In this document: one piece after another, positions 30,582 through 61,500 of the stretch | How positions within the stretch are numbered: position 1 is the first letter of the stretch | How the letters are laid out: each line of letters begins with the position of its first letter | Assembly: GCA_977020255.1 (NCBI GenBank) | Contig: CDROCS010002968.1 | Coordinates: 248,001 to 312,000 of the forward strand | Direction: 5' to 3' | Length of the DNA: 64,000 bases | Origin: Obrimoposthia wandeli | Lineage: Eukaryota | Program-made: the position numbers and the translations under genes | The notes under the pieces: generated by a model | Databases searched by the model: none | Seen by the model: only the letters and a program-made list of their open reading frames with translations | What the model was told of the DNA's origin: nothing

Positions 30582-32138
30582 CTGTGACATGGGTACTCTC
30601 AGACCCCCATCAAAGTCATGACAAATTTTGTCCGAAAATATAATTTATTTATCTGAATCTGTGGTTTAGAATGTTAATTTATAAAAATAATTTTATATCA
30701 GTGACTATTTTGAGGTACTCTATGATTTAGTTACATAATATTAACGTAAAGCAGTAGTTTAGATAATTACATTCATTCATTGTTAGAAATGAATAAACAA
30801 CGGCGCCAAGCGTTTCTAGAAGCTAATACAACAATATTTGAACTCCCGAATGATAACCCTGCAACTATTGAAGAAATATTTCCCGAAAATGATGATGAAG
30901 AAGATAATATACGTGAAGTACAGCGTATGAATGATGATTCTGAGAGTAATACTAGCATTGATAGTGACGAAGAATTGCGAGAAAATCAGTTAGTGTTCAT
31001 AGCGAGGACGATTTGAGTAGTAGTGACGATGATGATGAAGTAGAATGTGTCATATGGAATCTCATTTCTTCTTCTGGATTTGAGTGGTCAGAACAAACCG
31101 GAATACAGCAAGGTCAAGGACGGCAGGCACTTATGAACGTGCTACATGCTACTCCATGAATTAACCGCGGAGTTAACCCAGCGTCTCCTTTGGAGTGTTT
31201 CCTAATGTTTACTGAAGAGGCCCTCGAAGAAACACTGCGGTTTACCAATGTTCAAGGTAGACGTATAATAACTGAATTAAATCAGAACGTCCCAATCAAC
31301 AATCGTAAAGCTTGTCACAAAGTAAATTACGATGAGTTATGTGCCTTTATAGGTCTAAACATAATTTCTGGAGCATATAAAGCCCAGTTCTGTTCTATCG
31401 ATAGCCTGTGGTCCAGTAGAGACAGCCAGCCAGTTTTAGAGCTACAATGAACATCCAGGGATTTTACCAACTACGAACTGCCATTCTAGAAGAAGAAACC
31501 GATATGAACCCTTTGCACATTCTGCAGTGTGTTTGAATTGATCCGTTCAAAGCTTCAGCGATTTAAGACACCTAATCAAAATCTAACAATTGATGAGCAT
31601 CTTGTAGAATTTCACGACCGCGTTCAGTTTCAACAATGTATTACCAGTAAACCGGGTAAGTACGGAATAAAGTGTTTCTGGTTGTGCGAAGCCTAATCTG
31701 GACTCTGTCTCAATGGTTAAGTTTACATTGGCCAACATTCTGTAAGATAAGCAATTCTCCAACAATGTGCTTCAGTACCTGAAGCTGTGGTCACACAGTT
31801 GATTGTCCCTTATTTAGATAAAGGCTACAATTTGGTGGGGGATAATTGGTTTTCTTCTTTAGCTTTGCGACATTTGTTTACGATGATTGTCAATAAATTG
31901 AACTGTGAACTGCACAATTTGTAAGTCTTTTGAAGTATTTGATCATGTATATAAAATATTGTTGTGTTCGTTAACATTTTTGAGAAATACTTACACATTA
32001 GTTAAGTACTTGAATTAATTGTTTTCCAATACATACACTGTGTATAATAAATTATTTTCAATTTAACTTAAAATTAAACAGGTTATAGTTAATTTTATTA
32101 TGTCATAATCCATGAGGCTGAGAGTACCCATAACACAG
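30582..32138 (+). mobile_element. piggyBac element, internally deleted
   Basis: TTAA TSDs at 30578-30581 and 32139-32142; 21-bp TIR CTGTGACATGGGTACTCTCAG / CTGAGAGTACCCATAACACAG; transposase motifs ELCAFIGLNI, LTIDEHL..F..Q..SKPGKYGIK, LVGDNWFSS. Confidence 0.95.
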
Positions 32139-32379
32139 TTAACGCTTAGATATTTATGTCATAGGATAACAGTTAAAAATCTTTGGCTAGGTTGGCTAAC
32201 AATGTATTTGATCCGAAAGACACACATCCCCTTGAGAATGACATAATATAGCGTTGATGAACAGGAAAATAACGTACTCAGGAGAAACGTTTTCCAGACG
32301 ATACGTGCAAAAATTAACAAAATGTTTTTAATCTAGAGAGAGTTTCTTAATTTGGAATTAAAAAAAAATAATTATTTCA

Positions 32380-33041
32380 GTACAGTTTAACTTTTGAAAA
32401 AGTCTTTGAAATAAGTGTGTCAGGTTGTATTCTATACATGGTGTTTACTTTTTTGAAATTCGAGCTGCGATTCCAACCTGATGTGTTAGCTTTGAAATTC
32501 AACTAACCGTCTCGGGAAATACAACTTCAGATTTTCAAAAATCAGCCTCTTTCTCGTTTTCATCCTCATCGTCATCGAAATATTGTGTTTAAGTAAGAAA
32601 ATGTGAATCACAAATAACATTCACAAGCCACTTTTCTATTCAATCATCATTCAATATTTCACTGCACATCCATTCATAATTGTAGCAGCATCAAATTCAA
32701 CGTTATTTGCCACATGTGGGAATCGATTTTCTTTTTCATCTGTATATCTAAAATCAAACTATGAAAGAATTTTAAGTGTTTGATGTGGTTTCTCATTCCA
32801 GGGTGTAAATATTACAATAATAGCACCAAGCACATGTACTTTGTTCGATAGCAATATTGATTCATTGTATTCGTAAATTGAAAGAAGTACACGATGCACT
32901 AGACGCCTTGCGATAGTAAAAGTGTATCTAATACAGAAAAATGTAACATAAGTCATTCCATCTTGCACATTTCATGGGAAACCGCTCCATTCTCGTTTGT
33001 ATTCTAAACGCCATATGGTGAATATGTTTCTAAGGTATTGG
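32380..33041 (-). mobile_element. pogo/Tigger-like transposase relic, 3' part (interrupted by the Maverick)
   Basis: Minus strand reads ...PNTLETYSPYGV*NTNENG, RRLVHRVLLSI, VHVLGAII..PWNE..TL, acidic C-terminal region; resembles Tigger/CENP-B DDE_1 proteins. Confidence 0.65.
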
Positions 33042-33138
33042 AGTAGGTGGATGTGTCTGGTCTAATTCACCCCCACCCCCTCCCCCGGGGGGCTACCACT
33101 GTCCTTTAAAATCGTGCATGTGTGTGAAGTGAAATTTT
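33042..33138 (+). repeat. Left terminal inverted repeat of the Maverick
   Basis: About 97 nt matching the reverse complement of 46973-47069, with roughly 10 differences by manual alignment. C-rich core. Confidence 0.95.
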
Positions 33139-33384
33139 CTACCCCTCCCCAACACTCAAAAAAACTAATTAACCCCATATAACACCCTTTAAAATTGAAA
33201 ATCTCATAGTGCTCCCTCAGAGTGAGGAAGTGCCGGAGAAGCCATCTAGGGCCAATGCGTGCCAGTGGATAACGGGCCAATTCTATACTAGAGGATCCCA
33301 GTCTCGCCGATCGAGATTAGTCCGCCACCAAGTCAATGACGCCTACAGGAGACATCACCGGCTTCATTAGATACCAGTCAAAAT

Positions 33385-33849
33385 TTGGCTAGGGCTTGGG
33401 AGACTGCTTCTCCTCGTCCAACAATCATCCAGAACTTGAAGAGGGCCTGGGATGAAGCTGGTATCGACGAATTCCTGGCGGAACTGGATACACCGACAAT
33501 GCTTCCAGATTCGCGAGGGCAACAGGATGCCGTCTCACGTCAGCTTCAGCGTGAAAAGGAGGAGAAACAGAAGAAAGCTCCACGGAAGAGGAAGGCTACT
33601 ACTTCTATGTCGGGACCATCAACATTGGCTGTACCTCCTCCCAAAAAGTTGCGGCAACTATTGCCAAAACTTCAGGTAACGGAAATTGCTGTACAACAAC
33701 CGGTGAAGCCGAAAAAGAAACCTGGTCGGCCAAAGAAGAAGGAGCCAGTTCCGCTTTCTCCAATAAAACTCAGTCGGAGGGATTTCGATGAGGATGATCC
33801 CAATGATGACTTTGAAAAGATTTTTAAAAATATAATTTATAAAAAATAA
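33385..33849 (+). CDS. Maverick ORF1: basic/proline-rich protein with AT-hook-like motif; no in-frame ATG start
   Basis: 154-codon open frame (open from ~33339) with KKPGRPKKK, a PRKRK NLS-like motif, an acidic tail and an internal repeat QNLARAW/QNLKRAW. Confidence 0.55.
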   Translation: MARAWETASPRPTIIQNLKRAWDEAGIDEFLAELDTPTMLPDSRGQQDAVSRQLQREKEEKQKKAPRKRKATTSMSGPSTLAVPPPKKLRQLLPKLQVTEIAVQQPVKPKKKPGRPKKKEPVPLSPIKLSRRDFDEDDPNDDFEKIFKNIIYKK

Positions 33850-34191
33850 TTTCATGTGTTTCTATTTCTTCTTTATACTTATTTAAAAAAACTTTAAAAT
33901 TTTAAAATTTCTTTTACAAATTTAGTAATATTAAAATACTATCTTTAAGTTTACTAAAATATCAAGATGAAAAAAATAGTTAACTTATTCGAATGTGATT
34001 GGAATTATAAGGAATAATTCTACATGAAATTTTTTGGTTTAAATAGAAATGCAATGATTAGTTATAGATTTATTAAACTTTCATTTGATAAATAAAAATA
34101 TATCATTTAATTGAATGTGATTGGATTAAAAATATCTTAAATTTATATAGATATATAGGTTCAAATTTATTAACCTCTTCATAATTAAAAA

Positions 34192-34515
34192 ATGGAAGTC
34201 ATTAAAATGAAAAGTCTGGTGACGAAGATTGAAGAAAACATCAGGAGAAATGAGAAGAAAGGAGATTTAAGAAAGAGGGTCCTCAATTAGAATCTCTACG
34301 CTGCTGTCGCGACCTAGTGGAATCGTCGGGTGGAGATTCAGGAGAGGCGGCTAGCAAAACAAAAACGGATCGTGGAGTGGAACAAAAAAATCGAATTGGA
34401 AAAAAAAAATTGGATGAAAAAAGAAGAGGAGATGGAGGACAATCGACAAGCTGCAAGAAAGAGAATCCTCCAGATTAAACCGGAAGAATATATATATATA
34501 TATATATATTTTTGA
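34192..34515 (+). pseudogene. Maverick ORF2: coiled-coil protein with SERTA-like N-terminal motif (2 in-frame stops)
   Basis: MEVIKMKSLVTKIEENIRRNEKKGDLRKRVLN*NLYAAVAT*WNRRVEIQERRLAKQKRIVEW... reads in a single frame from ATG 34192. Confidence 0.45.
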
Positions 34516-34917
34516 ATATTATTTTTTCTTTCGTATTTATTGTTTATTTTTATGTTACATAATTGTCTAAATATAAACAATTTTATATATAATATTTTTT
34601 ATAATGAATAATAAAAATTGGAATAAATTATACATTAAATTATATCCTGATTTAATGTAAGATTATAAAAAAAATTACTTATCAGAAAATGATACTACGG
34701 AAATTGTTGGAGATAAAATATGTAATTTAATTTCGAAATATTTAGGTATGTTTACATTTAATATAATTTATTTTAATATTCATAGGAGAATTGACAATAT
34801 ATACCAATCTTAACATGAAAGACTGAATCCTGAGTACTTTTTTATTTTAATAAATTTTTGATTAATGGTTTTTTTATTCGTTATAAACAATGGGATTTGC
34901 TACAAATTTGGTTAATT

Positions 34918-35264
34918 ATGCAAGAATATATCATAGATTTTGAGGCTTTCATTAACAGAAATGGAGATTATATTATAAAATAATTATGTATTATGGATAT
35001 ATGCGACGTTTTCCATCCTTTGCATTTCATATTTCATGTAGATATCCCGTTAGAAGTTTAGATTATAAGAAAAAATTTACTAATTTATATCTAACTAATT
35101 ACTTTTATTTATTAAAATGGAAAGATGGACATAAGGCTTTTTGTGAAATATGTATTTTCGATACAATAAAATCTAATTTTGATATTGAAAATGGAATATT
35201 TTATGTTTTAGATGAAATGGATGGCAAAAAGTATAAGACTTTAAAAAAATATTTTCCAAATTGA
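34918..35264 (+). pseudogene. Maverick ORF3: conserved Polinton-type small ORF with N-terminal DxE (DEDD-like) motif, frameshifted
   Basis: MQEYIIDFEAFINRNGDYIIK*LCIMDI...HFIF, then a frameshift into YPVRSLDYKKKFTNLYLTNYFYLLKWKDG...FYVLDEMDGKKYKTLKKYF. Pattern matches the D-x-[EQ]-x-F..IxKEL..H.IF..WxDG ORF common in animal Mavericks. Confidence 0.6.
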
Positions 35265-35409
35265 GGTTGATTACTGTAAATATTTCACGTGATCATCTAA
35301 TAAAAATTCCACGAAATATTTGCTGTCCATATCGTGATCATGGTGACCATTGAGCATATAAAAAATGTTTAAGTCTATCTTATTATTACTTGACATGTAG
35401 ATAAACAAT

Positions 35410-35612
35410 TATTCTAATTGGAGAAATTCATTATTTACAAAATAAAATTTTCATCCAATTACAAATAATCCTTTTAATTGGAGGAATAAAATATATTAAA
35501 AATAATATTAACAACCAATAACAGATAAACAATCCTTCTCAGTGGAGGAATAAATTCAATTTTTTCATCCAATAAGAAAAGACCATATGTGCACAAATTT
35601 TAGTATATAAGC
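35410..35612 (+). promoter_or_regulatory. Putative polB promoter: five CCAAT/ATTGG boxes plus TATA
   Basis: ATTGG 35417 and 35477; CCAAT 35455, 35515, 35569; TATATAA at ~35604; ATG at 35652. Confidence 0.55.
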
Positions 35613-35651
35613 AAACAATTTCTTCATTTAAATTCCCGACTATTTGAAATA

Positions 35652-38600
35652 ATGACTATGGTAAGAAACTTCTTTTTATTTCTTTATTAATATTTAATTT
35701 TAGATTACATGTAACCTGTTTCCAGCATATTGTGATGCTTCGGCTCCGCATGGAGGAGAGTCCTGCATGGAGATAATGTCCGCCTACTATCGGACAAAGT
35801 CTCATGGGCTTCAATTCTTCGCCTGTCCCTTCTGCAGAACAATGGAGGAAAAGGAGTTTTGAGACTTCTTCTGTGAACATCGAGCTCATCTATCATGTTT
35901 CACGGCCAAAAACAAGAAGAGGGCTATCGTGCAATTGGTGTGCGATTCGCAGGCCTCTCCAGCTCCTGCTCCAATTCCAGTGGCAGTCAGTCTACCAGTT
36001 TATGGTCCTGCCATTGGTCCTTCTCTCCCGGCTCCTGATTCTGCAGCTGCCTCATCCACTCAAATAACTAACAATGAGTGGATGAACATCCTCTCCCAAG
36101 AAGATTTTGAGTAGTTGGCACCAGCAACCCAATTCTCAAACAATGACTGGATGGAAAATATCACCCAATCAGATTTCGAGATGGAGCAGCCCCAGTGGAG
36201 TGACAACAGCTGGTTGGAGACTATTGAGGAATCTGATTTTGTCGAGTTAACAGACGACAGTAGGATGGATTCTGTCAATGAAGAGGACTTTCAACCAACT
36301 ACAGTTGGATTGCCTTCATTAGGTATATTTTATTATTATTTTTCTGATTATTTTTTAAAATTGTAATTATATATATTTTATTTTTATTTTTTATTCAAGA
36401 AATACAGTGATACAGCCATCATCCGCTACGACAGCCATGCCTCCTCCATCGCGAGTGCCTACATCGATGTTTGCAACGCCTTAGATGAAATCATTTAAAA
36501 AAATATATTTATTTTTTAATATATTTATTTCACCAGCATCAACCTCTACAACAGCTGCTTCTTCGTCGGCAATGTCAGTTACTCCAACCTCAAATGCAGC
36601 ATATACAACTACCATTGTCTCATCGGCAGCACCTACTACAGCAGCACCGTCTACATTAGCTGCGATTGCCTCAACTGTTAATATAAATAGTTGTCTTCCC
36701 ATTCAATTAGGGGGAGGTTTGTCAGCAACTGAAGGAGAAAGAGGCAAGGCCAATTTCTTAATAAGGTCCCACCAAAAAACGTAGAGAAAACGGTGCTACT
36801 ATAGAGTATCACCGAAATAATAAATATGTTATAGTTAAGATGCCATTAGGAAATAAAATTTTATTAAACGTAGGTGTAAATACAAATATTGAAAGTCTTT
36901 TAAAATCAGAAGTGACTAAATTAGGACAGGCTAAGGTTCAATTTTGCGCAACAGTGCAATTTAAAAATGTCAATGAAGAGACTAAAACTTGGGTAAATTC
37001 ACATAAAGTAACTGTTTTTTATGATAATTTTGTAACTGAAATTGGAAGAAACCTAGATGAAAAAATGTTAATTATAGCGAGTTAGGTAATGGATGGACTC
37101 TAGTTAGAATTCACGATGTTAGCTTTGTTCTAACAAAGTTCACTGACATGATATATCTTTCGAGGAGTTCATACATTCTTTCACCTAGATCTCTTCAACT
37201 TTCACGTTCAATTGTTAACATACAAAACAGTGATAACCGTTGCTTTCTGTATAACGTGTTGGCCATCCTCAAAAGGGATCTAATTACTGAGCATAGCGAG
37301 CGTGTCAGTAAATATACCCCTTTTTTAAATTAATTGCAGTATCATGGAATAGATTTTCCTGTTAAATTAACTGCGATATCAAGATTTGAACACATCAATA
37401 ATTTGAGTATTAATGTATTTAAATATAATACTGATATCCCAGTTAATATAACAGATAAAGAAATATTTAAAAATTCTTATGTAGATGTAATTTATAGGAA
37501 CAAAAATGAGGGGACTCAGGTCAAATAAATTTGCGAAAACTTTTGCAGATTTAGAAACTACTACAGAAATCCCACCATAACATGCATTTCTTTAGTTTAC
37601 CTGGGCAACAGCAAAAAAAACTCTTAAAATTAATATCGAGTTACTGCAAGATCCCGCGATGTATCAAATGTATGATAATGGTATACGCGGTGGAATGACT
37701 TTTGTCAACAAACATCATGTTGTCAAAAATCAATCCACGGAGATTCTGTACATCGACATTAATAATTTGTATGGGTGGGCGCTTACTCAACCTCTACCTC
37801 ATGCCAACTTTAAGTGGGTTTATGATGAGGAAGAGTTGAATAAGTTGATGACAGATTTGGCTACTGTTGATATAGTTTCATCAAACGTCGGCTATTTGGT
37901 TGAGGTTGACTTAACAATCCCTTCCAATGTGCATGATAAATTAGATGATCTCCCAGTAGCACCTGTTCATCAATGCCCACCTAATTCAAAGGTTAAGAAA
38001 TTATTGTTAACACATGAAGACAAGTTGAATTATGTTGTGCATTGGCGGCTTCTTCAATTCTACTTAAAGTTGGGAGCGAAAGTTACTCGAATTCATCGTG
38101 CTATAAGCTTTAGTCAAAACTTTGTGTTTAAAGACTATATTGAGAAGAATTCTAGAAAACGTAATTTGGCCACTAGCAAATTCGATCGGGATTTTTACAA
38201 GTTAAAAAGTAATAGTCTCTTTTGAAAAACTGTTGAGGATTTGCGGAAACGTATTTGTCTACGGTTTTGCAATGATGAGCGTAAACTAATAACATATACT
38301 AGCAAGTACAACTTCAAGCGTAGTTTTACAATGGTAGATGACTTGGTAGCAGTGTTATTAGGACAACTGAGTATTTGTCTCGATCGACCGAGTTATATAG
38401 GTCAAACGGTTTTAGAACTTTCTAAACTCAGAATGTACGAGCTTCAATACATAGAATTAGAGAAATATCGACAGGTTTTCAATTGTGAGATCAATATCGC
38501 AGCTGGGGACACTGACTCTTTCTTTTTAGAATGTAAAAATGTTAGTTTAGATAATCAATTATTACCGACAATGTTTAGGGACAACTTACTTGATACCCAT

Positions 38601-38975
38601 AAATATCCCGCTAACTATCCTCTACACTCTATGAATTTAAAGGATATTATCGGGAAATTTAAGGATGAAAGCAAGGGACAGGTTTCGTATGATGATTGTA
38701 TTTTCCTACGCCAAAAATGCTACAGTTTACATGCATCTAATAATACATGTTCAATGAGAGCAAAGGGTGTGGGAAGAAACAATCTTACACATGAGGCCTA
38801 CCAGAAAGTTTATGATACTGGGTGTATTGAAAGCGTTGAGCAAACTAGATTTATTTCAAGAGCCCATCAACTGTATTCCCATAAATCAACCAAAATCGCT
38901 TTGAGTAGTAATGACGACAAGCGCTTTTGGGTAGAAAAGAACGCTAGCCTAGCTTATGGACACTTCCAAATTTAA
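35652..38975 (+). pseudogene. polB: Protein-primed family B DNA polymerase with spliced N-terminal leader; stops, frameshifts and an internal deletion
   Basis: Motifs GNGWTL, NIQNSDNRCF, GIDFPV, SINVF, GIRGG, YIDINNLYGWAL (motif A), KLKSNSLF*KT (motif B), AGDTDSFF (motif C), IGKFKDE, DDKRF. Leader exons 35652-35660 and 35704-36322 have GT-AG introns. Confidence 0.93.
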
Positions 38976-39224
38976 ACGGTTTTCATTTTTTGATTGTTTT
39001 GTTTAGTTTATTAAAATTTTAGATCCCTATGGCACCTTGACTCTAACTTTTTGTTATTTATATACATTTTTTAGGTTGGGCCTTATCTTTGCTGACAGAT
39101 CTCATTGTGTATTGTTTTTAATGTATTAAAAAATTATGTCTTTTATTATTTTACCCCTATATTTTTTTAAGGATTTAAAGAAAATTCAAAATAAAACATT
39201 AAAAATAGTTATTATTATAGCACA

Positions 39225-39602
39225 TTAATCGTTTTGCAACGATAACCATAAAATACATAAATGTCCACAGTTTCTCGTCGCAGGATCCTGATATTGTATC
39301 ATGTTGTAAAATACTCTTCTTCGTTTTTTTTGAATAGTCGAAACAACTTTGTGATAATACATTGCAAGTGGATCAAATACATCTATTGTCCACTCTCTAA
39401 CATAAATAGCTATCCAATGTTCTCCTATTAAATTCGAAGTATGAGTATTGATAATGTAACCTCCAGATTGAAAAAATGGAATCATATCAATAGGATAAAC
39501 TCCATTGAATTTATCACCCAGGACCTTTTCTGCTGATTCTTGTACTTGTACTGAACTAAATAAAAATTAATAAATATAAATTTTAAAAATGTTTTACTTC
39601 AT
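39225..39602 (-). CDS. Adenain/Ulp1-like cysteine protease (maturation protease), two exons, 111 aa
   Basis: Exon 1 ATGAA (39602-39598), 42-nt GT-AG intron (39597-39556), exon 2 39555-39225. Gives MNSVQVQES...FNGVYPIDMIP...IINT...GEHW...FDPL...QYQDPATRNCGHLC with the His/Asp/Cys triad present. Confidence 0.88.
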
Positions 39603-39603
39603 T

Positions 39604-40832
39604 CTATAATATGACAGTTCTGTTTTTATTGATTTGTATTTCCGAATCAAATACTCCGTAAATAAGCACCGTAGTAGGATGTGTTAAAGCTGCATTGAAC
39701 TTAATTTCTAGTCATAAATTTCCATCCTTTGGTAGTTGGCATTGGTTTATATCAAAGTCTGGTGCCAAAACAAATGTTAAGAACGGGCAGCTAATTTTAA
39801 AATCAGTGAAAAAAATACCATTGTTTATATTTTTATCTAGTTGACCCAAATTACGAATAATAGATTGCGTATAAGCCAAAGCATAAGCGTTACCTTCGAA
39901 ATCTGTTTTATATGTTTCACGATAATCAGTATTTCTTGAAAGTGTCACTGAACCTACATTAAGATTGTCAAATTGAGTTGAATCTGTCGTATAATTTCCT
40001 AGATACTTTGCAGTTTTTTGAAAAGAAATTAAATCGAATTTCGGTAATCTTACATCACCAAATATTTGATCCTTATTAAAAGCTTGTGTACCCGTACCTA
40101 AAGAGTAAGATATAAGTGTAGTTTCTCTAATAGAATAGCAAGCATTGTTTTTCCCTTCCTATATTATGTGCCATCAAAACTGATTGCTCGGTTTTAACTC
40201 TTCGAACATACAATTTTGCAACCAAAATATCAAGTCTAGGTTTCAGAACGTCTGTGCTTATCAAAAGAAAATTCCATTTATTACGTTTCAAGTGAAGATG
40301 TACATTAACACCGGGAATTAAATATTTCGGTTGTTCAAAGAAATTCAATCTCAAAGACCCACACATTTCGTAAGCTTTAGAACCTGCAATCTATTCTTTG
40401 CGAGTTGCAACCGTTTTATCAAAAACCAATGGTTGCCAAATTAGTATTTTAAGTATCAGTACTATAATTCAAAATACTTTCAATCCAAGCTTTATGAGCA
40501 TAGAAAGAATTTCCACTTTCAATTTTGACATTATTAAGAGTAACAATGGCATCACTAAATAATGAATTAAAGAGATAATTTACAGGTGTTACATCGGAAT
40601 TTTCCTCTAAATTAGTACCATCCCGATTTAATACTTTTATTTGAACATAAAGCAAAGTATCATTTAAATCTAAATATTCGCTATTGGAACCATTAATATT
40701 AAATTCTAAATCGGTTAAAGTGTTTCCTGAAACTGAGTTAACTAGAACTATTTCTTCAAAGGAATCATTATCTACAACTAACTGTGGAAGTGGTTTATCA
40801 AAAATACAAAATTCGGTTTTGACGCAACTCAT
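39604..40832 (-). pseudogene. Major capsid protein (double jelly-roll, hexon-like), disrupted
   Basis: ORFs 40449-40832, 40127-40366 and 39712-39948 join across stops and frameshifts: LEFNINGSNSEYLDLNDTLLYVQIK, YAHKAWIESILNY, FFEQPKYLIPGVNVHLHLKR, FVLAPD..GNL, typical of Polinton MCP. Confidence 0.9.
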
Positions 40833-41206
40833 TTTGCAAATATTGTTCCTTCAACTTTCCTATGTTTGTTTATATTAATTTTTTGCTTCTTTTTACGTTT
40901 AAATCCACTACCTTCTTTGCTTTTATTTGATTTACCTTTTCTAATCAAATTAGCAACTTCAGGTAAAACATTATCAAGTTCATTAAGTGTATGCTTCTTA
41001 AAAGTTGGTATTAGTTTATTGTCATTAGATGAAAGGTAATCCTTTCCTAATTTTGATACAAATCACCTGAGTCTTTTTAAAAGAGGAAAGGCAAATCTAC
41101 CTAATGTTCTAAGCCAGCCAGATCCATATTGTTTACCAACAAAATATGGTAATTATCCACCTTGTTGGCTTTGATTATAAGCCTCAATTATTGCTGGATT
41201 CGTCAT
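40829..41206 (-). pseudogene. Small basic/amphipathic virion core-type precursor (QxGxG protein) between penton and MCP
   Basis: MTNPAIIEAYNQSQQGG*LPYFVGKQYGSGWLRTLGRFAFPLLKRL...KQEGSGFKRKRSKK. The QxGxG plus amphipathic helix pattern and gene position are typical of Polintons. Confidence 0.75.
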
Positions 41207-42242
41207 TTTGTTTTCTTAAATGTATTGTTAAACTTGTCTTGGCCCCGTACGTGAAATCTATTAGTTGTTCGGAATCATCTCTAATATTTACTTCAATATT
41301 GTTTATAGAAAAGAGAGCAACTGGAAGATACATTGGTTGATCTATACGCATACTGACACCGTCCCCATCTTTAGTTTTATTTTGAGATATCCATATTGTT
41401 CTCAAAAGAGGAACTCGTTGTCGTCCTACAAGCGTTGGTTCTATTAAATTAGTATAAATATATAAATGATTAACAACATTTAAAGGTTTTGCCTTATTTT
41501 TAGCTTTTATGGTTTTTATTGTATGGGTTTCAAAGGTATTTCTGTTTAAACCGAGGTATTTAGTGAGTTTATCATCAAATGAAACCGGTTTTATGTTGCT
41601 CTTTACTGTATACGTTAATTTACCATTTAATGTTACACATTTATCCAAATATTCATTACATTCCTTCTGTATTAATTTACATAAATCCACTTCACTATCT
41701 ATTTTATAATCCTTTGAAAACCTTTTCGGTTCCACTACAGTCTTTGGTCTCGTTTAAATTAACAACACTTTTGCTACTCTACCAGGAACATTTCTAACCG
41801 ATTTAGATGAGACTATATCCCGTCTATTACGAGATACTGCTTGTTCACTATCAAAACTGAATTGAAGAGCTTCTTTTTCAGATTCAAATGTAATTTTAAT
41901 AGCTTGAAGATATTTTATTCGATTTTTAAATCTGACTTTGTTATTTTCATATATAACTTTTACTTCTTTATCTATTCAATTGTAAAAGAAGTTTCCTTTA
42001 CTATCAAATCCGATCACAACTTCAGTTGTTTTTTCATGATCAAATTCTTTTGTAAACGACATATGTGAGTTTTTTCTGATAGTAACTGGAGAATAATAAA
42101 ATGAAAATTATGTTAAAGCCGCTTCCCATTCTCCTTGGAGATTTATAGAATTTTCCCAATCGATAATAAAGCTACTAGCGTCATTATCTGGTTGAGTCTT
42201 CGGGCATCCGTTACTAGGTAAAACCATATACATAGACTTCAT
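41184..42242 (-). pseudogene. Minor capsid protein (penton, single jelly-roll), disrupted
   Basis: N-terminus MYMVLPSNGCPKTQPDNDASSFIIDWENSINLQGEWEAALT; C-terminus LYIYTNLIEPTLVGRQRVPLLRTI...PMYLPV..INNIEVNIRDDSEQLIDF...IHLR. Confidence 0.88.
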
Positions 42243-43268
42243 ATTATATTAGATGCTGATATCCAAGTTGGGTCTGAATAACCATGCCATTTAACAAAGT
42301 ATTGTTTATGTTTACAGGCACCCTTAGATTTTAATATTTTTTGAATACGGAAAACGCTAGGTTTATTTGATATTACTTGTAGTTCTTGCATGTAAAATTT
42401 ACCGTGAACGATATTATTGTCAGCATCTTTAATAGTATACATTATTGGATTACTCTTTTGATCAATTTTACTTATACAAAATATTTTATCGCTCCAATTC
42501 TGATCAAAGTTTTTAATAAATGGAGTAGAGCTAATTTTCGAAATTCGGACATATTCCTTTTTCTTATATTTAGCTTTTCTAATATTTTTCTTTTTTATTC
42601 CTGTACATCCAAATATCTTTAGAATTTTTATTAGTAACATCAACAGGTCTCATTCCCTTGAGACCTCTATGTTCAGAGTGATTATATGCATGTATTATTT
42701 TAAGTAAAACTTGGATCCATTTTTTATTTCCTTCTTTTGTGAAATACTTTTTTATTCGATCTCTTACAGTACAATTAAATCTTTCTACTACTGCTGCTTT
42801 GTACTGTGATAACACAGGGTAGTGATTTATATTATTTTGTTTAAATAATTATTGAACTTTCTTATTATAAAATTCTTTTCCTAAATCAGTTTGCACATTT
42901 TGTGGAATGCCCTCTTTTAATATTTCTTTAATGGCTTCAAGCATAGCTATTGAAGACTTTGCTTTAACTGGAATTGCACGAGCAAACCTGCTAAATACAT
43001 CAATACATGTTAAAATATATCGATATCCCTTATTAATGGAAGAATATGGGATCATCTCCATCAAATCCATTTGCCATAAATTATTAGGACCGCTGGTTTT
43101 GTAAGCTCTAGTTGGAAACCTTCTTCTCATCGGCTTGTTCAGACTGTAGGCTAACTGGTCGCTCAGCCATTTCTGCGTTTTCTTGTAATTTTGTTTTGTT
43201 CTTTTTGCTAATTTTGAAACTCCTGTGTAGCCAATTGGATCTTTTGGATTGAACCATATCTTCTCCAT
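42239..43268 (-). pseudogene. int: Retroviral-like (rve) DDE integrase with C-terminal chromodomain-like region
   Basis: WQMDL, YILTCIDVFSRFA, QTDLGKEF, VVERFN (DDE), YNHSEHR, and QYFVKWHGYSDPTWI at the C-terminus. One stop and a frameshift. Confidence 0.95.
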
Positions 43269-43354
43269 TACAACAATTTGAATAGAAAGAAAATTTAAGT
43301 TTAGGTAAAGAAGGGCTAGCACCCATATCTTTAGCTGATTTTAGAAATAATTGT

Positions 43355-43683
43355 TTATGAACGTGTCGCAGCTATAATACTACTGATAATTGAAGCAACA
43401 ACTGGAATAACAGCCCCTATGAAACCACCATTCTGTTAAGAATAATATTTCGTTTCCTTTTTTTACTTTTTACATTAGCAATATCTAGAGAAGTTTTTCT
43501 TTATTTCTTTAATATATTTTTCCGATTTTCAACTTTTACTCGACTCAAAACTATATTATACAAAACTTCCAATAAATCATCTACAACAAAGGATGGAAAT
43601 GCTTTAAGAATAATCATTCTCTTATTAAAAGAAGCTTTGACTAAAGCTTTAAAATAGGGTATGCTTCTTTGTATTTTCTTCAT
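43355..43683 (-). pseudogene. Conserved Polinton small ORF ending in a QNGGF + hydrophobic tail
   Basis: MKKIQRSIPYFKALVKASFNKRMIILKA...LLEVLYNIVLSRV..., then after a frameshift QNGGFIGAVIPVVASIISSIIAATRS*. Confidence 0.7.
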
Positions 43684-43882
43684 TTTAATAAAAAAGGTTC
43701 AATTTAAATATTGTTTATATTCGAAGCCATATAAGTTTTTTTTTATTTTTAACTACAGATTTGATTAATTCTTTCACTTCTTTTTTCTTAATAATTCTTT
43801 TTTTTGATTTCTTAGATTTTACTTTACGTTTTACTATCAACTTTGTAAAAGGCATTGCGAATTTATTTTTTATAATTGTTCT

Positions 43883-44491
43883 CTATTTGTTTGAATTAAA
43901 TATGTCTGTTAAAACACATAAATCATCTGGGCAAGCTTGTGTAAAGTCAATAAATATATACCCATGTGCTTGTTTAGCAGCATCGTGGAATGAATCAACT
44001 AGAAAGTTCTTATTTTGAGGAAATGCCTGTCTGGCCACAAAATCAACAACTGTTTGATCTCTAGGATTTTTAAATAAAACTAAGTAATGTACATTAAGAT
44101 TTCTTGTTCTATGGTGACCTCCTTGGTGAAACAGATTTTGAGTGATAAATATAACTGTAACTTCACGATGTCTTGCAATCTTTGTAAATAAATTATTAAA
44201 GTCCGATTCCTTGTTAGCCTCCTCATACAAATCATCAATTATTATTACATCTTTTTTTTTCAATCTTTCACACCAATTTGCATCAAATCCTTCAATAAAT
44301 TTTATACCCTTCAACTTGCAAACTTTTGTTTTGGTTAACCCGCTTTCCCCTCCTCCACCATGATGCCAATAAATATTTTTGAAACTAGATTTGCAAAGAG
44401 ATTTATTTTGCAACAATTTACATACGAAATGTGTCTTTCCACTTCCACTGAAACCAACTATTTGAAATAAAGCATTATTATTTAGCTCCAT
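43883..44491 (-). CDS. A32/FtsK-HerA-like genome packaging ATPase
   Basis: 202-aa ORF with Walker A GFSGSGKT, Walker B IIIDD, RH..TVIFITQNLF, NVHYLVLFKNPRD and HGYIFIDF. Confidence 0.95.
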   Translation of the reverse strand: MELNNNALFQIVGFSGSGKTHFVCKLLQNKSLCKSSFKNIYWHHGGGGESGLTKTKVCKLKGIKFIEGFDANWCERLKKKDVIIIDDLYEEANKESDFNNLFTKIARHREVTVIFITQNLFHQGGHHRTRNLNVHYLVLFKNPRDQTVVDFVARQAFPQNKNFLVDSFHDAAKQAHGYIFIDFTQACPDDLCVLTDIFNSNK

Positions 44492-44791
44492 TCTTTCATT
44501 TAATATTGTTTATATTATCATAGAAGTTTTCTTATTGAAATGTACAATGTTAGAGCTATTGTAGATGAAATACAAAATTTAATTAATGAATATTTGGCTA
44601 TAATTTTATTTATTTGTGTACGATTTCTAAATTCTCGAATAACGTGTGATCTAACCAAATATTTCAATGTTATCTTTTGTTATATCATTATTTTTTAATT
44701 CTGATAAAATTTGTTTACCCCTAATTTTCCCAGAAAATATTTCGCCGACAAGACGATCCACTTCATAGTCTGTATTTATAGTATTATTCAT
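44490..44791 (-). pseudogene. Unknown Maverick ORF between TBP-like gene and ATPase
   Basis: MNNTINTDYEVDRLVGEIFSGKIRGKQILSELKNNDITKDNIEIF... then frameshift or stop. Fills the gap in the minus-strand gene run. Confidence 0.35.
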
Positions 44792-44819
44792 TTGAAACAA
44801 TAAGTTTAAACGGGTTTGT

Positions 44820-45319
44820 TTATAGAAAAGATAACAAGATGTAATAAGATATATTTTCTAAAGTCAAATCAACAATGTCTGGATAATCAGAATTTTTCAA
44901 TCCCAATATCATAACTTTACCACTGGAAAATATATTTACACATAGCGGTTTAAACTTCAAATAACTGAGAGCAGGAAAATTTTCTGGTTCAAACATGCGT
45001 TCTTCTTTCATTTTCTCTGCAGTTTAAAAAAGATTTATCTGTTTCCCAATATTAGCTGAAATTGTGATTGATTGTATTGCAGTGATTCGAATTCCAAATG
45101 GTAAATTGAACCCAAGCATTGGTATTTTGCATCCCATAACACGACAATTTCCTAAAATAATTCAATATGAAATTAAAATAAAAACTAACCTGTAGGAAAA
45201 ATAACAACTGTGAAATTGTCAAACTTTTTCACATATTGTCTCGGCTTCCATTCATTGAATGGTAAGTACGAAACATCATCTTCTATTCTACCTTTATAAT
45301 TTATATTTACGAGTTTCAT
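44820..45319 (-). pseudogene. TATA-binding-protein (TBP)-like gene, two exons, 153 codons, one premature stop
   Basis: Exon 45319-45190, 38-nt GT-AG intron, exon 45151-44820. Protein MKLVNINYKGRIEDD...TVVIFPT|GNCRVMGCK...IRITAIQSITISANIGKQINLF*TAEKMKEERMFEPENFPALSYLKFKPLCVNIFSSGKVMILGLK has two TBP-like repeats. Confidence 0.8.
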
Positions 45320-45409
45320 TAAACTAAAATTGTATTCTGTAAAATCTTCTTTATATATGTCTGAACCTGCTTTTTTATTGCATGTTTCTTGTAGTTATCT
45401 TGCAAACCT

Positions 45410-45555
45410 ATTATAATTGGATGATATATTTCTTCCAATCAAATTTGATTTTTAATATTGATTTAGTCCAATCAAATTCAATGCTTTAGTTATATTAACC
45501 AATGAGATTCATGTCTTTGTTATAAATTAGTATTAAAGAATGCGCCATTGGAGGA
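45410..45555. promoter_or_regulatory. Putative divergent promoter (TBP-like / ORF A) with CCAAT-box cluster
   Basis: CCAAT at 45435, 45468 and 45499 (33- and 31-bp spacing); ATTGG at 45416 and 45547. Lies between divergently oriented ORFs. Confidence 0.55.
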
Positions 45556-45568
45556 AAAATCACAATAA

Positions 45569-46051
45569 ATGCATTCATATCAAAGACAATTATCAACGAT
45601 AGACGATAGCCAACGGATATTAAGCGGTGACGAAGATTTAGAAATGTTTGAAGAATCGGATAAGGATATGTATGAAGAAGTGAAACAATATTTCAAATAC
45701 AAAGTCAGATTTTTGAAGAAGGCTCAACTGATTGCTTTAGTAAATCCTGTGACAATTGAAAGAAGAAAGTTCAGCTATTATCTATCAAATATTCAAAAAC
45801 CAGATTTTCAATATCTTAAACAGAAAGTTTAAAAGGCAGTTCCAAATTTTACTTTCAATAAGAACGAATTTTATATCTGACGAGCCGATGCAGCATTTCT
45901 AGATGACTATGGAAGAGAAATAAATGTTGATGCGTTTCCGAAAAAGAAGCAATGGACTGTAACAATTCGACTTTATGGTTACAAGAAAGATGAAATTGGA
46001 ACAAAGTTGTCTATGTGGAAAATTGATCGTGCTCATATCCCTATGTTTTAA
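45569..46051 (+). pseudogene. Maverick ORF A, putative OB-fold ssDNA-binding-like protein (2 in-frame stops)
   Basis: Single frame through stops at 45830 and ~45878, ending ...FLDDYGREI...WTVTIRLYGYKKDEIGTKLSMWKIDRAHIPMF*. Paralogous to the next ORF. Confidence 0.55.
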
Positions 46052-46328
46052 ATATTTTCCTTTTTTACTTTCATTTTCCATGTAATAAATTGTAATTGGT
46101 TTTATTCATTTTTAATATGTTTCTTTCATTTGGCAATTAATAATTAGTTTTATTTTTCATAATATTTGTATCTTATATGTATTTTTTTATAAACATTGAT
46201 TTTTTTAATCAGTTTCCTTATTTTAGAATGAGCCTCTTCTGAGATAGGTAGGAAATTTTTATTATCCAGAAAGAATTTAAAAAGGAAAACTATGTAATAT
46301 ATTAAAGAGGCTTCAAATTATACGAGTT

Positions 46329-46638
46329 ATGAATCCTGTGAAAATATCTAAAGTTGAGAATAAATATCTGATCGAAATTTTAACAACATCTGATATTGAT
46401 CAATTGAAAGATATTTTGGGATTTTACATTCCTGATTATGTATATGAAGGAAATTGTTTCCATCTTGAAACTGATCCCAGTCTGGATTTTAAAGATGATC
46501 TAGGATATTTGATTGCTCCAATTCTAGATGAAGAACTATGGAATATTTCAATACGTCTCAATGGATAATTTTGCTGATGACGGTAAAATGCAGCCTCTTT
46601 GGACATTGAGTGAAGCCAATATGTTGTTTTATGTTTAA
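46329..46638 (+). pseudogene. Maverick ORF B, tandem paralog of ORF A (frameshift near 46565)
   Basis: MNPVKISKVENKYLIEIL...FKDDLGYLI...WNISIRLNG/YFADDGKMQPLWTLSEANMLFYV* aligns collinearly with ORF A. Confidence 0.55.
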
Positions 46639-46972
46639 TAAATGTTTTGAAAAATAATTTTGATTCGTATTTTGCTTTTTCTCCTCTAAACTATATAGAT
46701 CTGACCTAATTTTCTCTTATAAATCTGACTTAAATTTTTAACAAAAACATGTAGTAATCTAAAATCTTTCTTAAAAATAGTAGTAATATATTCACATTTT
46801 ATTTGAAATCTCGTATGTGATAAGCCGCCGGGGTCAATATGGATTCTCGTGATCTTCTCTAATCACTTTTGAGATTCGCTGTAAATTTCAAAGTAAAATA
46901 AAAAAATGTGTTGCTTTTCAAAATAAAATTCCCTACGCACATACACCAAATTTCACTCCACACACATGCACG

Positions 46973-47069
46973 AAATTTCACTCCACACACATGCACGGTT
47001 TTAAAGGACAATGGTAGCCCCCCGGGGAGAGGCGGAGGGAGTGGATTATACCGGACACATCCACCTACT
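46973..47069 (-). repeat. Right terminal inverted repeat of the Maverick
   Basis: Reverse complement of the left TIR. Its inner end is tandemly duplicated (AAATTTCACTCCACACACATGCACG twice, ~46949-46997). Confidence 0.95.
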
Positions 47070-47330
47070 TATTGGGCATGTTTACGAGCCATTCATTAAC
47101 AACATCTTCTTTCCCATTGCCAGCTACACCAACAACATTGAATCTTATTTAAACTTTGAAAACATGGTTTTTATGCCGGGAAAAATCAATGAAAAGCTTG
47201 TCATGTTCAGATGGTGTTGATCTTTGACCATTAACACAAAACCGCCAAACTAGATGTGACCTTGTGATCAACGAACAACCACCCGTTACGAAGATTATTT
47301 CTGTTAACAAATTAAGAATAATGATTGGAA
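47070..47330 (-). mobile_element. pogo/Tigger-like transposase relic, 5' part
   Basis: Removing the Maverick and one TSD copy restores the frame IRFNVVGVAGNGKEDVVNEWLVNMPN|TLETYSPY. Confidence 0.65.
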
Positions 47331-49520: not shown

Positions 49521-50124
49521 TAAGGCATTCGAAATTCTTCGACTGGCTTAGTGTGTGGAATACTAGGAGAATTAAAAACATTACTTGTAGAGTATTAAGT
49601 GAAAATTTATACTGAAAACATTCTCCAAAAAAGACAAATTACTTTGACCAACATTTAACTACCTTTCAATCAGCACAACACGCTGCAAACAAAGAGATAA
49701 GCGTAAATTAAACGACATGAGTAAAGATTTTGTGCATTTCATTGCGCTAGTGATAGTAAAATTGGTTTGTTTCTCTTTGATCTCATTGCATTACATTCAT
49801 CCAGGACGAAAGTGAGTTAGCACATTTGCTTAATCAACATTTAATTATCAACAGAAATATCTACAGTTATCAAAAAATACGTTTTATGTTCAAGGCTGTA
49901 AGACTGTGCATTTGTGGAACGCTGATTAAATATAATACCTTTTTGAAACATTATAATTATCTTATTAACTACTTTATTAAAGAATGTTTTTCAGAATGTC
50001 CATGGCTATAACACTATAACATAACACTGTATCTTCTTCTTTTACTCAAGTTTTAAAATGTGGAAAATGTTAATTTGTTTATTTTAAGTTTCATTATTTT
50101 AAATCTATTTATTTCATTTTAGCT

Positions 50125-51140
50125 ATGATTCCTATTGAAATAAAGAAATTCGTGAAACACCATAAACACCTGGGCAAAACTTATGATGAAATTAACGAAA
50201 TATTGCTATTGCCTGTCCGAAGCATTAAGTACATATGTTTATATAAACCGAGATCCCATAAACGCAAAACGGGAACTAAACGTTTAATTACTGAAAATGT
50301 ATCAAGTCGAATAATGGGACACATCGTGAAAGAAAATCATTTGGAAAGAAGAGCGAATTGTAGAACAATTTTTAATGATTTAATATTTAGTGTTAGCAGA
50401 AGAACATTAAATAATTTATTATTAAGAAAGCAGCTGAAGTACAAAAACTATTCATGTTCTATTCTTTTGACTAAGTATCAAAAATTGAGAAGGATTAATT
50501 TAATACGCAAATGGATCAATAATATTATAAATTTTAATCATGCGGTTTTCACAAACGAGAAAAAAATTTAAGCTAGACGGTCCTGATAATTGGTAAGATT
50601 GGATAATAAAATATATAATTTATTGATTAAGATGACATATGCTCCAAATAAGTTTAAAATTCAAAGAAAGCGACGTCCATGCGGATGAATAGGGAAAATA
50701 GTATGGGTATGGTAATGCCCAACAGTTTAGTAGCAGTATATTTTATAGAAGACAAGAACGATAAATACCAATATTTAGATATCATAAAAAAATATAGAAC
50801 TAAGATTGTGAACCTAAATTTAATAGAATATTACTTAAAATCAACACAATGGTAGTGCCCACACCTCAAAAATAGTGCTACAATGGTTTTCAGAAAATAA
50901 TGTAAATTTAATATAATGGTAAGCTCATTTCCCAGATATTAACCTTATGGAAAATATATGGAAGCTAATATCAGATCACGTCTATGCATAAAGTAAAATT
51001 GATCATTTATTAACTTTGAGGCAAAGAATCAATGATGCTGTGCTAGACATAAATGCGATAAAAAGAGACGTACTATTGAAAATGTACAGTATTTTAATTC
51101 CAAGGCTTACAACTGTTTCAATATCTTGAGGAAATATATA
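50125..51140 (+). mobile_element. Tc1 (DD34E) transposase relic, near full length
   Basis: HTH region, VFTNEKK/FKLDGPD, QHNGSAHTSKIVLQWF, FPDINLMENIWKLI. Confidence 0.9.
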
Positions 51141-61023: not shown

Positions 61024-61500
61024 TTATACTATGTATTTTTCTAAATTAGAATAAATAACAATATAATTCGAAATATATATGTCACTTGTATTCAGTTTAT
61101 TTAGCATAGAAAAAGATCTTTCCACTGCTGCAGATGTAGCCTGACATTTTTGAAGCTTTGCGTATGGGGTTGGTGAGATTGTTGATATAATCATATTAAC
61201 TCTATCCCAAACGTCATTTGAATTGAATCGATTTGTTAAATATCTTCTAATATCACATATAATATAGTAACGAATTTTTTTAAACCAAAATTTACACACT
61301 AGAAATTTTTTTAAATATTCAGACAATTTAAATTTTAAAACAATTTTAAAAAGAATAATTTTATTTTATAATTAAAAATAAAATTGTTACATGTTTTAAA
61401 CAAAAAACTATTTAAATTTTAAAAAAACTACTTAAGAGGAACAAATGTCTCGCGGTCGACCCAAAACTGTTTCGCGATCGACGGGTTTAACACCCATATA
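61024..61500 (-). mobile_element. Deleted hAT element: 5' end plus dimerization-domain fragment
   Basis: CQATSAAVERSFSMLNKL; minus-strand end GGGTGTTAAACCCGTCGATCGCG..GGTCGACCGCG is typical of hAT termini. Confidence 0.75.

Follow-up and report, generated by a model that had tools for sequence, protein, structure and literature searches.

Related viruses and transposons

Among described systems, adintoviruses whose PolB belongs to the Alpha class and whose virion module belongs to the Beta class (Starrett et al. 2021, PMC8502044; for example, the Parasteatoda contig) resemble the locus analyzed here, according to the accessible part of that paper, in having a PF03175-class pPolB, an integrase, an ATPase and, as a candidate in the locus, an adenain-like protease. 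Adintoviruses are characterized by animal hosts and by virion proteins that group with the Mayetiola or Terrapene types. Its Alpha-adintovirus maps carry the labels SSDBP, MAEL and Oncoid, with hosts assigned by text order. The readable text on animal adintoviruses contains no TBP-like gene, SERTA-like ORF, AT-hook-like ORF or introns; the present element has a TBP-like gene and candidates for the others. Vertebrate Mavericks (Barreat and Katzourakis 2021, PMC8097293, accessible text) share with the element TIRs, a 6-bp TSD, two converging modules and accessory regions at both ends. They range from 12.7 to 24.6 kb, 96% of their loci are degraded, and intact ones are intronless, whereas the element has candidate introns. 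Besides, their ATPase belongs to the polymerase module, but in the element it heads the capsid run. A TBP-like gene together with an adintovirus-like PolB, as in the element, is found in MELD viruses, which are not from animals; this likeness is taken from the Fig. 5 legend of PMC8502044 alone. TBPs of large dsDNA viruses (PMC7221094, accessible text) and herpesvirus mimics such as KSHV ORF24 are similar to the element's protein in combining a TBP fold and DNA-contact Phe with a divergent N-lobe. However, KSHV ORF24 is a mimic inside a multi-protein viral complex, whereas the element would encode a small stand-alone TBP.

The element and its structural genes

The window, i.e., the whole stretch of DNA that was analyzed (64,000 nucleotides from Obrimoposthia wandeli), contains a Maverick/Polinton at 33042–47069 (14,028 bp), which falls within the size range of vertebrate Mavericks. 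The preliminary description had recognized this element but placed it at 33385..46638, short of the extent given by its TIRs and TSD. The TIRs are 96 bp long with AG...CT ends (left, 33042..33137, plus strand, starting with AGTAG; right, 46973..47069, minus strand, ending with CTACT), and 87 of 96 aligned bases are identical between them. They are flanked by identical 6-bp TSD copies at 33036..33041 and 47070..47075. Of the other Polinton hallmarks, pPolB, rve integrase and A32 ATPase were also present. This copy is dead and heavily decayed, with 21 internal stops in 3,652 codons in addition to frameshifts, a state that the preliminary description leaves out. No host genes were identified among the flank ORFs scanned, none of 10 window ORFs was present in the sequence collection by exact look-up, and an Rfam scan gave 0 matches. 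With one decayed copy known by its sequence alone, the data support an endogenized Polinton of adintovirus type whose ends carry regulatory and replication genes, as had been proposed.

The ORF order bore out a single minus-strand run from ATPase to protease. Just before it lies a 46-aa ORF (44651..44791, minus strand). The A32-type packaging ATPase (43883..44491) has an open frame and matched PF04665 above the cut-off (E 3e-6). It is followed by a lysine-rich 44-aa ORF (43724..43858), a possible core protein without a Pfam match, and by a broken ORF (43340..43683) which we take to be gasderminX/pX-like. The integrase (42239..43268; one stop, one frameshift) combines an rve domain (PF00665, E 9.4e-14) with a C-terminal chromodomain whose score was below the cut-off (PF00385, E 7.6e-5). 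Next are a putative minor capsid protein (41184..42242; three stops), a putative virion accessory ORF (40829..41206; two stops) labeled PZ/cupiennin-like on our assumption, and a putative major capsid protein (39604..40832; frameshifts and stops). Both capsid ORFs are long and lie in the expected run, yet had no relevant match in Pfam or NCBIfam; their names come from position and from motifs that we presume to be diagnostic. The adenain-like cysteine protease (39225..39602; candidate 42-nt intron at 39556–39597) scored below the cut-off against Peptidase_C48 (E 0.012) and had no relative among PDB sequences, its motifs being assigned by eye. Thus, of the core genes, integrase, ATPase and pPolB were confirmed, the protease was weak and the two capsid proteins lacked a relevant profile match. 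The available description of Alpha-PolB adintoviruses likewise has accessory ORFs before pPolB and a capsid run, putative in the element, with ORFs taken to be cupiennin- and gasderminX-like.

The polymerase gene

The pPolB gene (35652..38975, plus strand), broken by stops and frameshifts, encodes an N-terminal zinc finger, acidic Trp repeats, an S/T/A/P linker, a QxGG motif and replication domains. Approximately 380 aa (endonuclease VII and the 3'-5' exonuclease, i.e., proofreading) are absent between 37525 and 37596. The pPolB piece of the window by itself gave no Pfam match. A homology search found 532 relatives, many with PF03175; the top ones were 50–58% identical and bore PF03175 and/or PF02945, and the closest scored PF03175 at E 1e-28 to 1e-32. 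In a tree that kept 117 of 120 relatives, the element lay nested, at 97% support, next to three relatives, of which two have the zinc finger and one is N-terminally short.

The zinc finger was present in 18 relatives out of 120, of which 10 did not belong to the 8-sequence seed; among the 25 closest relatives longer than 1200 aa, 17 had it. When modeled in one relative, it formed a compact domain (residues 1–50, pLDDT 77–90) followed by a disordered linker. A fold search with this model covered residues 439–784 and was dominated by the exonuclease, which matched phi29 polymerase (Z 14.3, rmsd 2.9, 178 aligned). The zinc finger and acidic repeats had been described as a leader exon beyond the core genes; a separate gene was rejected because the zinc finger is a conserved N-terminal domain of pPolB common to relatives. 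The acidic Trp repeats occurred in 0 of 120 relatives. The OTU-like domain at the N-terminus of Alpha-adintovirus PolB was not matched by Pfam in the window pieces or in three relatives, and the pPolB alignment gave 121 pattern matches in prokaryotic genome contigs, none of which was confirmed.

A pPolB clade from ENA/JGI contigs (P0006–P0057), with polymerases mostly 45–58% identical to that of the element, also has the zinc finger at the N-terminus, in many cases together with a QxGG-like motif, and one of its clusters holds many 11–16 kb contigs. In this clade, zinc finger and polymerase form one unbroken ORF, whereas the element has candidate introns between them (35661–35703, 36323–36407 and 36485–36536, the last without a canonical donor). 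Short introns of this kind, predicted also in the protease and TBP genes, would be an unusual feature. In the working scheme given below, pPolB would have been produced as a polyprotein whose zinc-finger head precedes a flexible linker and a protease-site-like motif.

Accessory ORFs at the left end

The AT-hook-like ORF (33340..33849, plus strand; 169 codons open, first in-frame Met at 33499) consists of an acidic helix, a lysine-rich region with one motif at 33712 and an acidic tail. Its motif (GRP core with Lys/Arg flanks) was reached in 5 of 200,000 ORF shuffles with a pattern set post hoc, and the ORF had no Pfam match. The SERTA-like short ORF (34192..34515, plus strand; two internal stops) has a charged coiled-coil-like tail and owes its label to a motif pattern that we assume to be typical. 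This pattern occurred once in six frames of the 64 kb and in 0 of 200,000 ORF shuffles, counts that are not independent because the pattern was written after viewing the sequence. Even with the E limit raised to 10, and with HMMER filters on, Pfam gave no SERTA match for a 41-aa piece that contains a stop, and no polinton paper among the matches listed mentions the term. A SERTA mimic is a possible unusual feature of the element.

The DxE ORF (34918..35401, plus strand), broken over three frames, has an N-terminal DxE and a C-terminal Cys/His motif and may resemble the MAEL gene of adintoviruses. Its three fragments, searched separately, had no match in Pfam, PHROGs, NCBIfam or PDB sequences that would support MAEL or a DEDD-type nuclease; one fragment searched against the Atlas scored at best 0.88, to unnamed clusters. 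It was rejected as the lost pPolB exonuclease, as tblastn with 120 relatives gave no match. None of the non-TBP accessories had a useful match in PHROGs or NCBIfam, and the SERTA, AT-hook and DxE-nuclease identities given earlier, which are motifs seen by eye, were not confirmed by a supporting match in Pfam, PHROGs or NCBIfam. A canonical Oncoid was also rejected: LxCxE-like matches fall outside the inferred reading frames, whereas the accessible maps of Alpha-PolB adintoviruses carry an Oncoid label.

Promoters, TBP-like gene and paralog pair

Two CCAAT clusters were observed. The candidate pPolB promoter (35403..35651, plus strand) has five boxes at 35417–35573, a TATA-like box ~49 bp before the ATG and a CHR-like TTTGAA at 35643. 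The candidate bidirectional promoter between the TBP-like gene and paralog 1 (45320..45568) has five boxes at 45416–45551, three of them on one strand and 33 and 31 bp apart, and a TATA-like box for each gene, one lying 38 bp ahead of the TBP ATG and the other 48 bp ahead of an upstream ATG of paralog 1. The p value was ~0.0025 for each cluster among nine intergenic regions tested. The flanks had at most three CCAAT per 165 bp; 58 of 200 whole-window shuffles gave at least five in some 250-bp window, and part of the first cluster arises from a 64-bp duplication. CCAAT clusters had been reported in front of early-type genes, and this held for pPolB and for TBP/paralog 1, but not for the AT-hook, SERTA and DxE ORFs (two boxes each, p 0.07–0.29). 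The other seven minus-strand ORFs tested had 0–1 box upstream and no TATA, a contrast that partly reflects coding versus non-coding DNA because the genes upstream of the structural ORFs adjoin them or overlap with them. TTTGAA is frequent here, the DNA being AT-rich, with 11 matches spread over 5 of 9 regions. CCAAT boxes are general promoter elements, and their spacing here is one that we take to resemble G2/M promoters. The proposed tuning to cycling cells draws on these boxes and on the putative SERTA motif.

The TBP-like gene (44820..45319, minus strand) has a candidate 38-nt intron at 45152–45189, from which we infer splicing, and one stop in exon 2. Homology of the C-lobe is clear (PF00352, E 8e-11, above the Pfam cut-off; 35 matches among PDB sequences, all TBP-containing), and the EPE loop is kept, as is the Phe that precedes the SGK turn. 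The N-lobe encoded by exon 1 was not statistically detected (-1.1 bits, equaled by 445 of 2000 shuffles; no TBP match in Pfam or PDB sequences), although lobe-start and Phe-turn motifs are still visible by eye. The inter-lobe linker is 25 aa long, versus 39 in three haloarchaeal TBPs. Because the N-lobe is undetected and the linker shorter, DNA binding by the protein may be abnormal or even absent. By our residue mapping, the C-lobe retains two glutamates that contact TFIIB in cellular TBPs and are tied to TFIIB binding in the accessible text of PMC7221094, which points to the use of host factors. In that text, nearly all TBP-carrying viruses, and most large dsDNA viruses with a TBP, encode their own TFIIB; in contrast, a scan of 26 ORF pieces from this 14-kb element with its host-type glutamates gave no match to TFIIB or to RNA polymerase. 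A self-contained toolkit, as in the preliminary description, is thus not supported. A TBP is an unusual feature in an animal-type Polinton.

Paralogs 1 (45569..46051, plus strand; two stops) and 2 (46228..46638, plus strand; frameshifts near both ends) had been labeled SSB-like. Their paralogy was confirmed (27% identity over 93 aa, E 1e-10, a score reached by 0 of 2000 shuffles). Identity by codon position was 0.43/0.62/0.43 against 0.26/0.31/0.34 by chance and was lost in shifted frames, i.e., the pair shows the codon-position pattern of purifying selection. No clear sequence or fold match indicated SSB function. A single-sequence model of a 95-aa piece of paralog 2 matched alpha/beta folds of a generic kind (Z 7.0, rmsd 4.7 and 82 aligned for the best) with no OB-fold SSB among the 50 matches listed, which speaks neither for nor against SSB because pLDDT was 52 and the chain incomplete. 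Paralog 2 had no clear match in PDB sequences, phages or the Atlas; its one weak match among 1.84 billion representatives (P0005, E 5e-4) was probably due to chance, with five short stretches and a sub-threshold PrsW match. TBP exon 2 and paralog 1 had no relative in the word-indexed collection. With relatives absent or limited to that weak match, these searches gave no sign of conservation of TBP exon 2 and the paralogs across Polintons.

Interpretation

On balance, the locus is probably a fossil capsid-encoding Polinton (adintovirus type, PF03175-class polymerase), inserted by its integrase and later decayed, for which we suggest the following working scheme. In the active ancestor, the end regions would have carried real, selected genes. 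Host NF-Y, which binds CCAAT, and host TBP would start transcription of pPolB, and the same factors, acting on one bidirectional promoter, would also start that of the paralog pair together with the TBP-like gene. The TBP-like protein would bind TATA-like DNA, bring host TFIIB and RNA polymerase II, and boost the element's own genes, plausibly the downstream capsid run on the same strand, by analogy with herpesvirus TBP mimics and late genes. Such an element would plug into host machinery rather than be autonomous.

It is possible, though doubtful, that this is an ordinary Polinton with the usual variable cargo: known accessories (MAEL, SSDBP, Oncoid-type) and a lineage-specific TBP fragment, with no coordinated module and with CCAAT boxes that are generic and partly due to the 64-bp duplication. 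Consistent with this, the MAEL, SSDBP and Oncoid labels stand on the Alpha-PolB maps and TBP in the MELD-virus legend (both PMC8502044), one group of insect polintons out of two is distinguished by mael in the part of the source available, most vertebrate Mavericks have a core flanked by accessory regions (PMC8097293, accessible text), and the SERTA and AT-hook ORFs lack Pfam matches. However, the head-to-head arrangement of TBP with a selected paralog pair, around CCAAT boxes 31–33 bp apart and with TATA on both strands, looks organized, and the accessible text of the maps for animal adintoviruses has no TBP label.

Rather unlikely is an extended form of the working scheme, an animal Polinton lineage with an early/late cascade in which NF-Y-type promoters would drive a spliced stand-alone TBP, having kept host-type TFIIB contacts and shed the helix for host regulators, which would in turn activate the capsid run; at the same time, E2F would be pushed by a SERTA mimic. 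If true, a virus of 14 kb would carry a TBP of its own, with no TFIIB seen, and mimicry of SERTA would offer a way into S phase besides LxCxE oncoproteins.

Alternatively, the TBP-like protein could be a decoy that titrates host TFIIB or evades host TBP regulators and so dampens host transcription rather than switching on genes of the element. The kept C-lobe, the undetectable N-lobe, the linker ~14 aa short and the N-lobes of viral TBPs without a host-regulator signature (PMC7221094, accessible text) agree with this idea, but exon 1 retains its motifs by eye and the shortening may reflect decay of one copy, so that we regard it as improbable.

The strongest version, a self-contained transcription/replication toolkit limited to proliferating cells, in which the SERTA-like protein would target E2F/CDK4 in the manner of an E1A-type oncoprotein, is very improbable: the rarity of the post hoc SERTA pattern, the TTTGAA directly before the pPolB ATG and the presumed G2/M-like spacing are set against the lack of TFIIB or polymerase-subunit matches in the pieces scanned, of a SERTA profile match and of in-frame LxCxE, the frequency of TTTGAA, and one planarian study in which, in the accessible text, Polintons were desilenced during differentiation (PMC8532177).

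Implications

The full accessory combination was not found in the literature searched, with Repbase outside the comparison. Several of its parts are catalogued (terminal accessory regions, SSDBP, MAEL and Oncoid in adintoviruses, TBP in non-animal relatives), and the novelty was overstated. The value of the locus is limited because the copy is dead and the remaining accessory ORFs either bear tentative labels or are of kinds already catalogued. Polinton gene control has been little studied, and completion of the viral cycle in animals is an open question. A TBP gene with a matching promoter layout offers a testable handle, namely a defined factor together with promoter candidates and predicted splice junctions. 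Close relatives lack such short candidate introns in their pPolB ORFs, which is relevant to how viruses gain or lose introns. Viral TBPs are mostly known from large viruses with their own TFIIB, and a 14-kb element whose TBP depends on host TFIIB would, if true, be a new arrangement. The presence of the TBP-like gene hints that such elements once steered the gene-reading machinery of their hosts.

A degraded Maverick/Polinton element

The Maverick/Polinton element occupies 33042-47069 (14,028 bp) and is closed by terminal inverted repeats (TIRs) of about 96 bp, which are identical at 87 of 96 aligned bases and are bordered by the same 6 bases outside both ends. Its termini, polymerase, integrase (PF00665, E 9e-14; chromodomain, E 8e-5) and A32 ATPase (Pfam, E 3e-6) identify it as a member of this group. 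The protease matched C48 weakly (E 0.012). No relevant Pfam or NCBIfam profile matched the capsid ORFs, which we presume to be such from their position and motifs. The single minus-strand run from ATPase to protease in the preliminary description was borne out, and the TBP-like gene lies upstream on the same strand. Besides, a 25-bp unit is present in two tandem copies beside the right TIR (46947-46997) and in one copy at the left end.

The C-terminal part of the polymerase (pPolB) had 532 relatives over 804 aa, with a best identity of 58%, annotated as PF03175 and/or endonuclease VII. In Starrett et al. (PMC8502044), the PF03175 polymerase class of adintoviruses is termed Alpha, and the pairing of Alpha polymerases with cupiennin/gasderminX virion modules is already described. 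In the cluster of one pPolB relative (P0016), 12 of the 15 members listed sit on contigs of 10.9-16.3 kb, near the size of this element, as expected if near-complete genomes of free or integrated relatives were present in public data.

This copy cannot be active. By our own segmentation, its 3,652 codons include 21 internal stops, where shuffled DNA has 0.076 stops per codon, and the frame changes about ten times. Measured against 42 of its 52 best-matching relatives, pPolB is missing 380 aa in the median (range 369-456); in a folded relative, the missing span corresponds to the phi29-type proofreading domain (Z 14.3, rmsd 2.9, 178 aligned) together with the endonuclease VII insert. Degradation is the usual state of vertebrate Maverick loci (96%, PMC8097293).

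The setting is AT-rich (GC 0.31 in the element versus 0.28 in the flanks). No host gene was identified among the flank ORFs scanned, and the label "animal-type" rests on gene content. A piggyBac-type element, decayed and with short inverted ends (30579-32142; DDE_Tnp_1_7, E 2e-5 and 1e-9), lies close to the Maverick on its left, and Tc1/mariner-like (50074-51100) and hAT-like (61024-61365) transposase remnants gave weak Pfam matches below cut-off. A single minus-strand reading frame with no Pfam match seems to span the insertion site (32930-33041 and 47070-47260), as if the Maverick had perhaps inserted into older coding-like sequence. Other features of the window were GC-rich ends resembling those of a small non-autonomous transposon with inverted termini (53700-54345) and a unit with a 33-bp period in three overlapping copies (18518-18644).

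N-terminal extension and candidate introns of the polymerase

The zinc-finger/acidic-repeat leader exon, initially listed among the accessory features of the ends, belongs to pPolB (35652-38975, plus strand), as the N-termini of 8 of 120 relatives matched it by tblastn. With a profile built from these 8 seeds, the CxxC...H..H domain was found in 18 of 120 relatives (17 of the closest 52 and one of the other 68), several of which carry two copies. The profile had a single match in the window (E 4e-14, a value partly circular because the seeds were picked by likeness to the window). In a relative's predicted model, the finger forms a compact fold followed by a disordered linker. A quick midpoint-rooted tree retaining 117 of the 120 relatives grouped the window polymerase with three of them (P0009, P0007 and P0006; 97% SH-aLRT). 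The N-terminal extension also contains four acidic repeats, three with Trp (36070-36300), resembling an acidic activation domain; acidic Trp repeats occurred in none of the 120 relatives.

In relatives, finger and polymerase form one ORF, whereas here three candidate introns interrupt them: two GT-AG introns of 43 and 85 nt and one of 52 nt without a canonical donor. Candidate introns were also present in the TBP-like gene (38 nt) and protease (42 nt), and all five, presumably spliced, are 86-93% AT. In contrast, intact vertebrate Mavericks are described as intronless (PMC8097293). Dinoflagellate polinton-like elements carry introners (PMC11957031).

Accessory ORFs

Motifs of the SERTA-, AT-hook- and DxE-like ORFs proposed earlier were present, and no Pfam, PHROGs or NCBIfam profile supported them. 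Across the six frames of the window, the SERTA-like and AT-hook patterns, which were written once the sequence was known, had a single occurrence each; 0 and 5 of 200,000 ORF shuffles, respectively, contained them. A 39-bp direct repeat, 122 bp apart and with a reverse CCAAT box in each copy, lies upstream of the SERTA-like ORF (33972-34132). The DxE ORF has a C-terminal Cys/His motif and may resemble the adintovirus MAEL gene. MAEL is labeled on Alpha maps (PMC8502044), and mael marks one insect polinton group.

The two right-end ORFs designated SSB-like (45569-46051 and 46228-46638, both plus strand) are indeed paralogs (27% identity over 93 aa, E 1e-10). Their alignment score was reached by none of 2000 shuffles and dropped to background in shifted frames, and identity by codon position was 0.43/0.62/0.43 versus 0.26/0.31/0.34 by chance, which is the pattern of apparent protein-level selection. 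The SSB designation found no such backing: searches of profiles and sequences for the pair, and of PDB, phages and fold for the second paralog, gave no family, relative or fold. Two Alpha maps, which text order assigns to Hydra and Stylophora, carry SSDBP labels (PMC8502044 Suppl. Fig. S2); therefore, a genuine SSB here would have precedent in the group.

TBP-like gene

The TBP-like assignment was upheld for the C-terminal lobe. Exon 2 fits PF00352 above cut-off (E 8e-11) and matched 35 PDB sequences, all TBP-containing, as well as 10 NCBIfam TBP models, each under its cut-off. Its identity to TBPs of haloarchaeal plasmids and viruses was 31-42%, and no close relative was found in a word-indexed sequence collection. 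It retains the EPE loop and the Phe preceding the SGK turn, which we take to be the TFIIB-contact glutamates and DNA-contact Phe. Such residues are described in PMC7221094. Lobe 2 is preceded by a 25-aa linker; in three haloarchaeal TBPs (those measurable among six), the linker has 39 aa. On inspection, motifs like those of a lobe are visible in exon 1, but its profile score did not stand out from chance (445 of 2000 shuffles scored as high).

Promoter regions

CCAAT sites numbered 50 inside the element (3.6 per kb) versus 98 outside (2.0 per kb). Clusters had been placed before the early-type genes in general; this was true of pPolB and of TBP/paralog 1, and the AT-hook, SERTA and DxE ORFs showed no enrichment. 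Two of nine intergenic regions were enriched, with 5 sites each versus 1.05 and 0.84 expected (p ~0.0025 each). Window-wide, at least 5 CCAAT in some 250 bp arose in 58 of 200 shuffles; the real flanks had at most 3 per 165 bp. The cluster before pPolB is in part the product of a 64-bp duplication. The other separates the TBP gene from the paralog 1 gene, which diverge from it, and includes three boxes on one strand at spacings of 33 and 31 bp. TATA-like boxes precede the ATGs of TBP, paralog 1 and pPolB by 38, 48 and ~49 bp, respectively. CCAAT plus TATA is the layout of host NF-Y plus TATA promoters; the arrangement here, as read from sequence, is compatible with these and does not show cell-cycle control. 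Directly before the pPolB ATG (35632-35648), an E2F-like TTCCCG, 4 bp and TTTGAA recall the CDE/CHR layout, an arrangement that may be chance in AT-rich DNA.

Possible use of the host transcription machinery

Accessory regions at the ends are already catalogued, as are SSDBP, MAEL and Oncoid genes, including Oncoid genes upstream of PolB (PMC8502044). A figure legend of the same paper names TBP for non-animal MELD viruses. The literature searched, with few subscription papers and without Repbase, yielded no mention of an animal Polinton with TBP, of SERTA in any Polinton, or of a zinc finger of this type on pPolB.

We lean toward a reading in which host factors start the early promoters and the TBP-like protein brings the host machinery to the element. 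That the accessory genes are instead unorganised cargo is less likely. Almost every virus with TBP also encodes a TFIIB-like gene (PMC7221094); none was matched by Pfam among 26 ORF pieces scanned, and a divergent one could be hidden among the ORFs of no recognised family. That the TBP-like protein acts as a decoy is unlikely. The self-contained, proliferation-sensing toolkit of the preliminary description is very improbable, and no in-frame LxCxE was found in the element's inferred reading frames.

If the TBP-like protein does act with the host machinery, early promoters of the element would be fired by host factors, and the protein would then recruit host TFIIB and Pol II onto the element's own genes, perhaps including the capsid run. 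The analogue we propose is KSHV ORF24, which is reported to do so for late genes.
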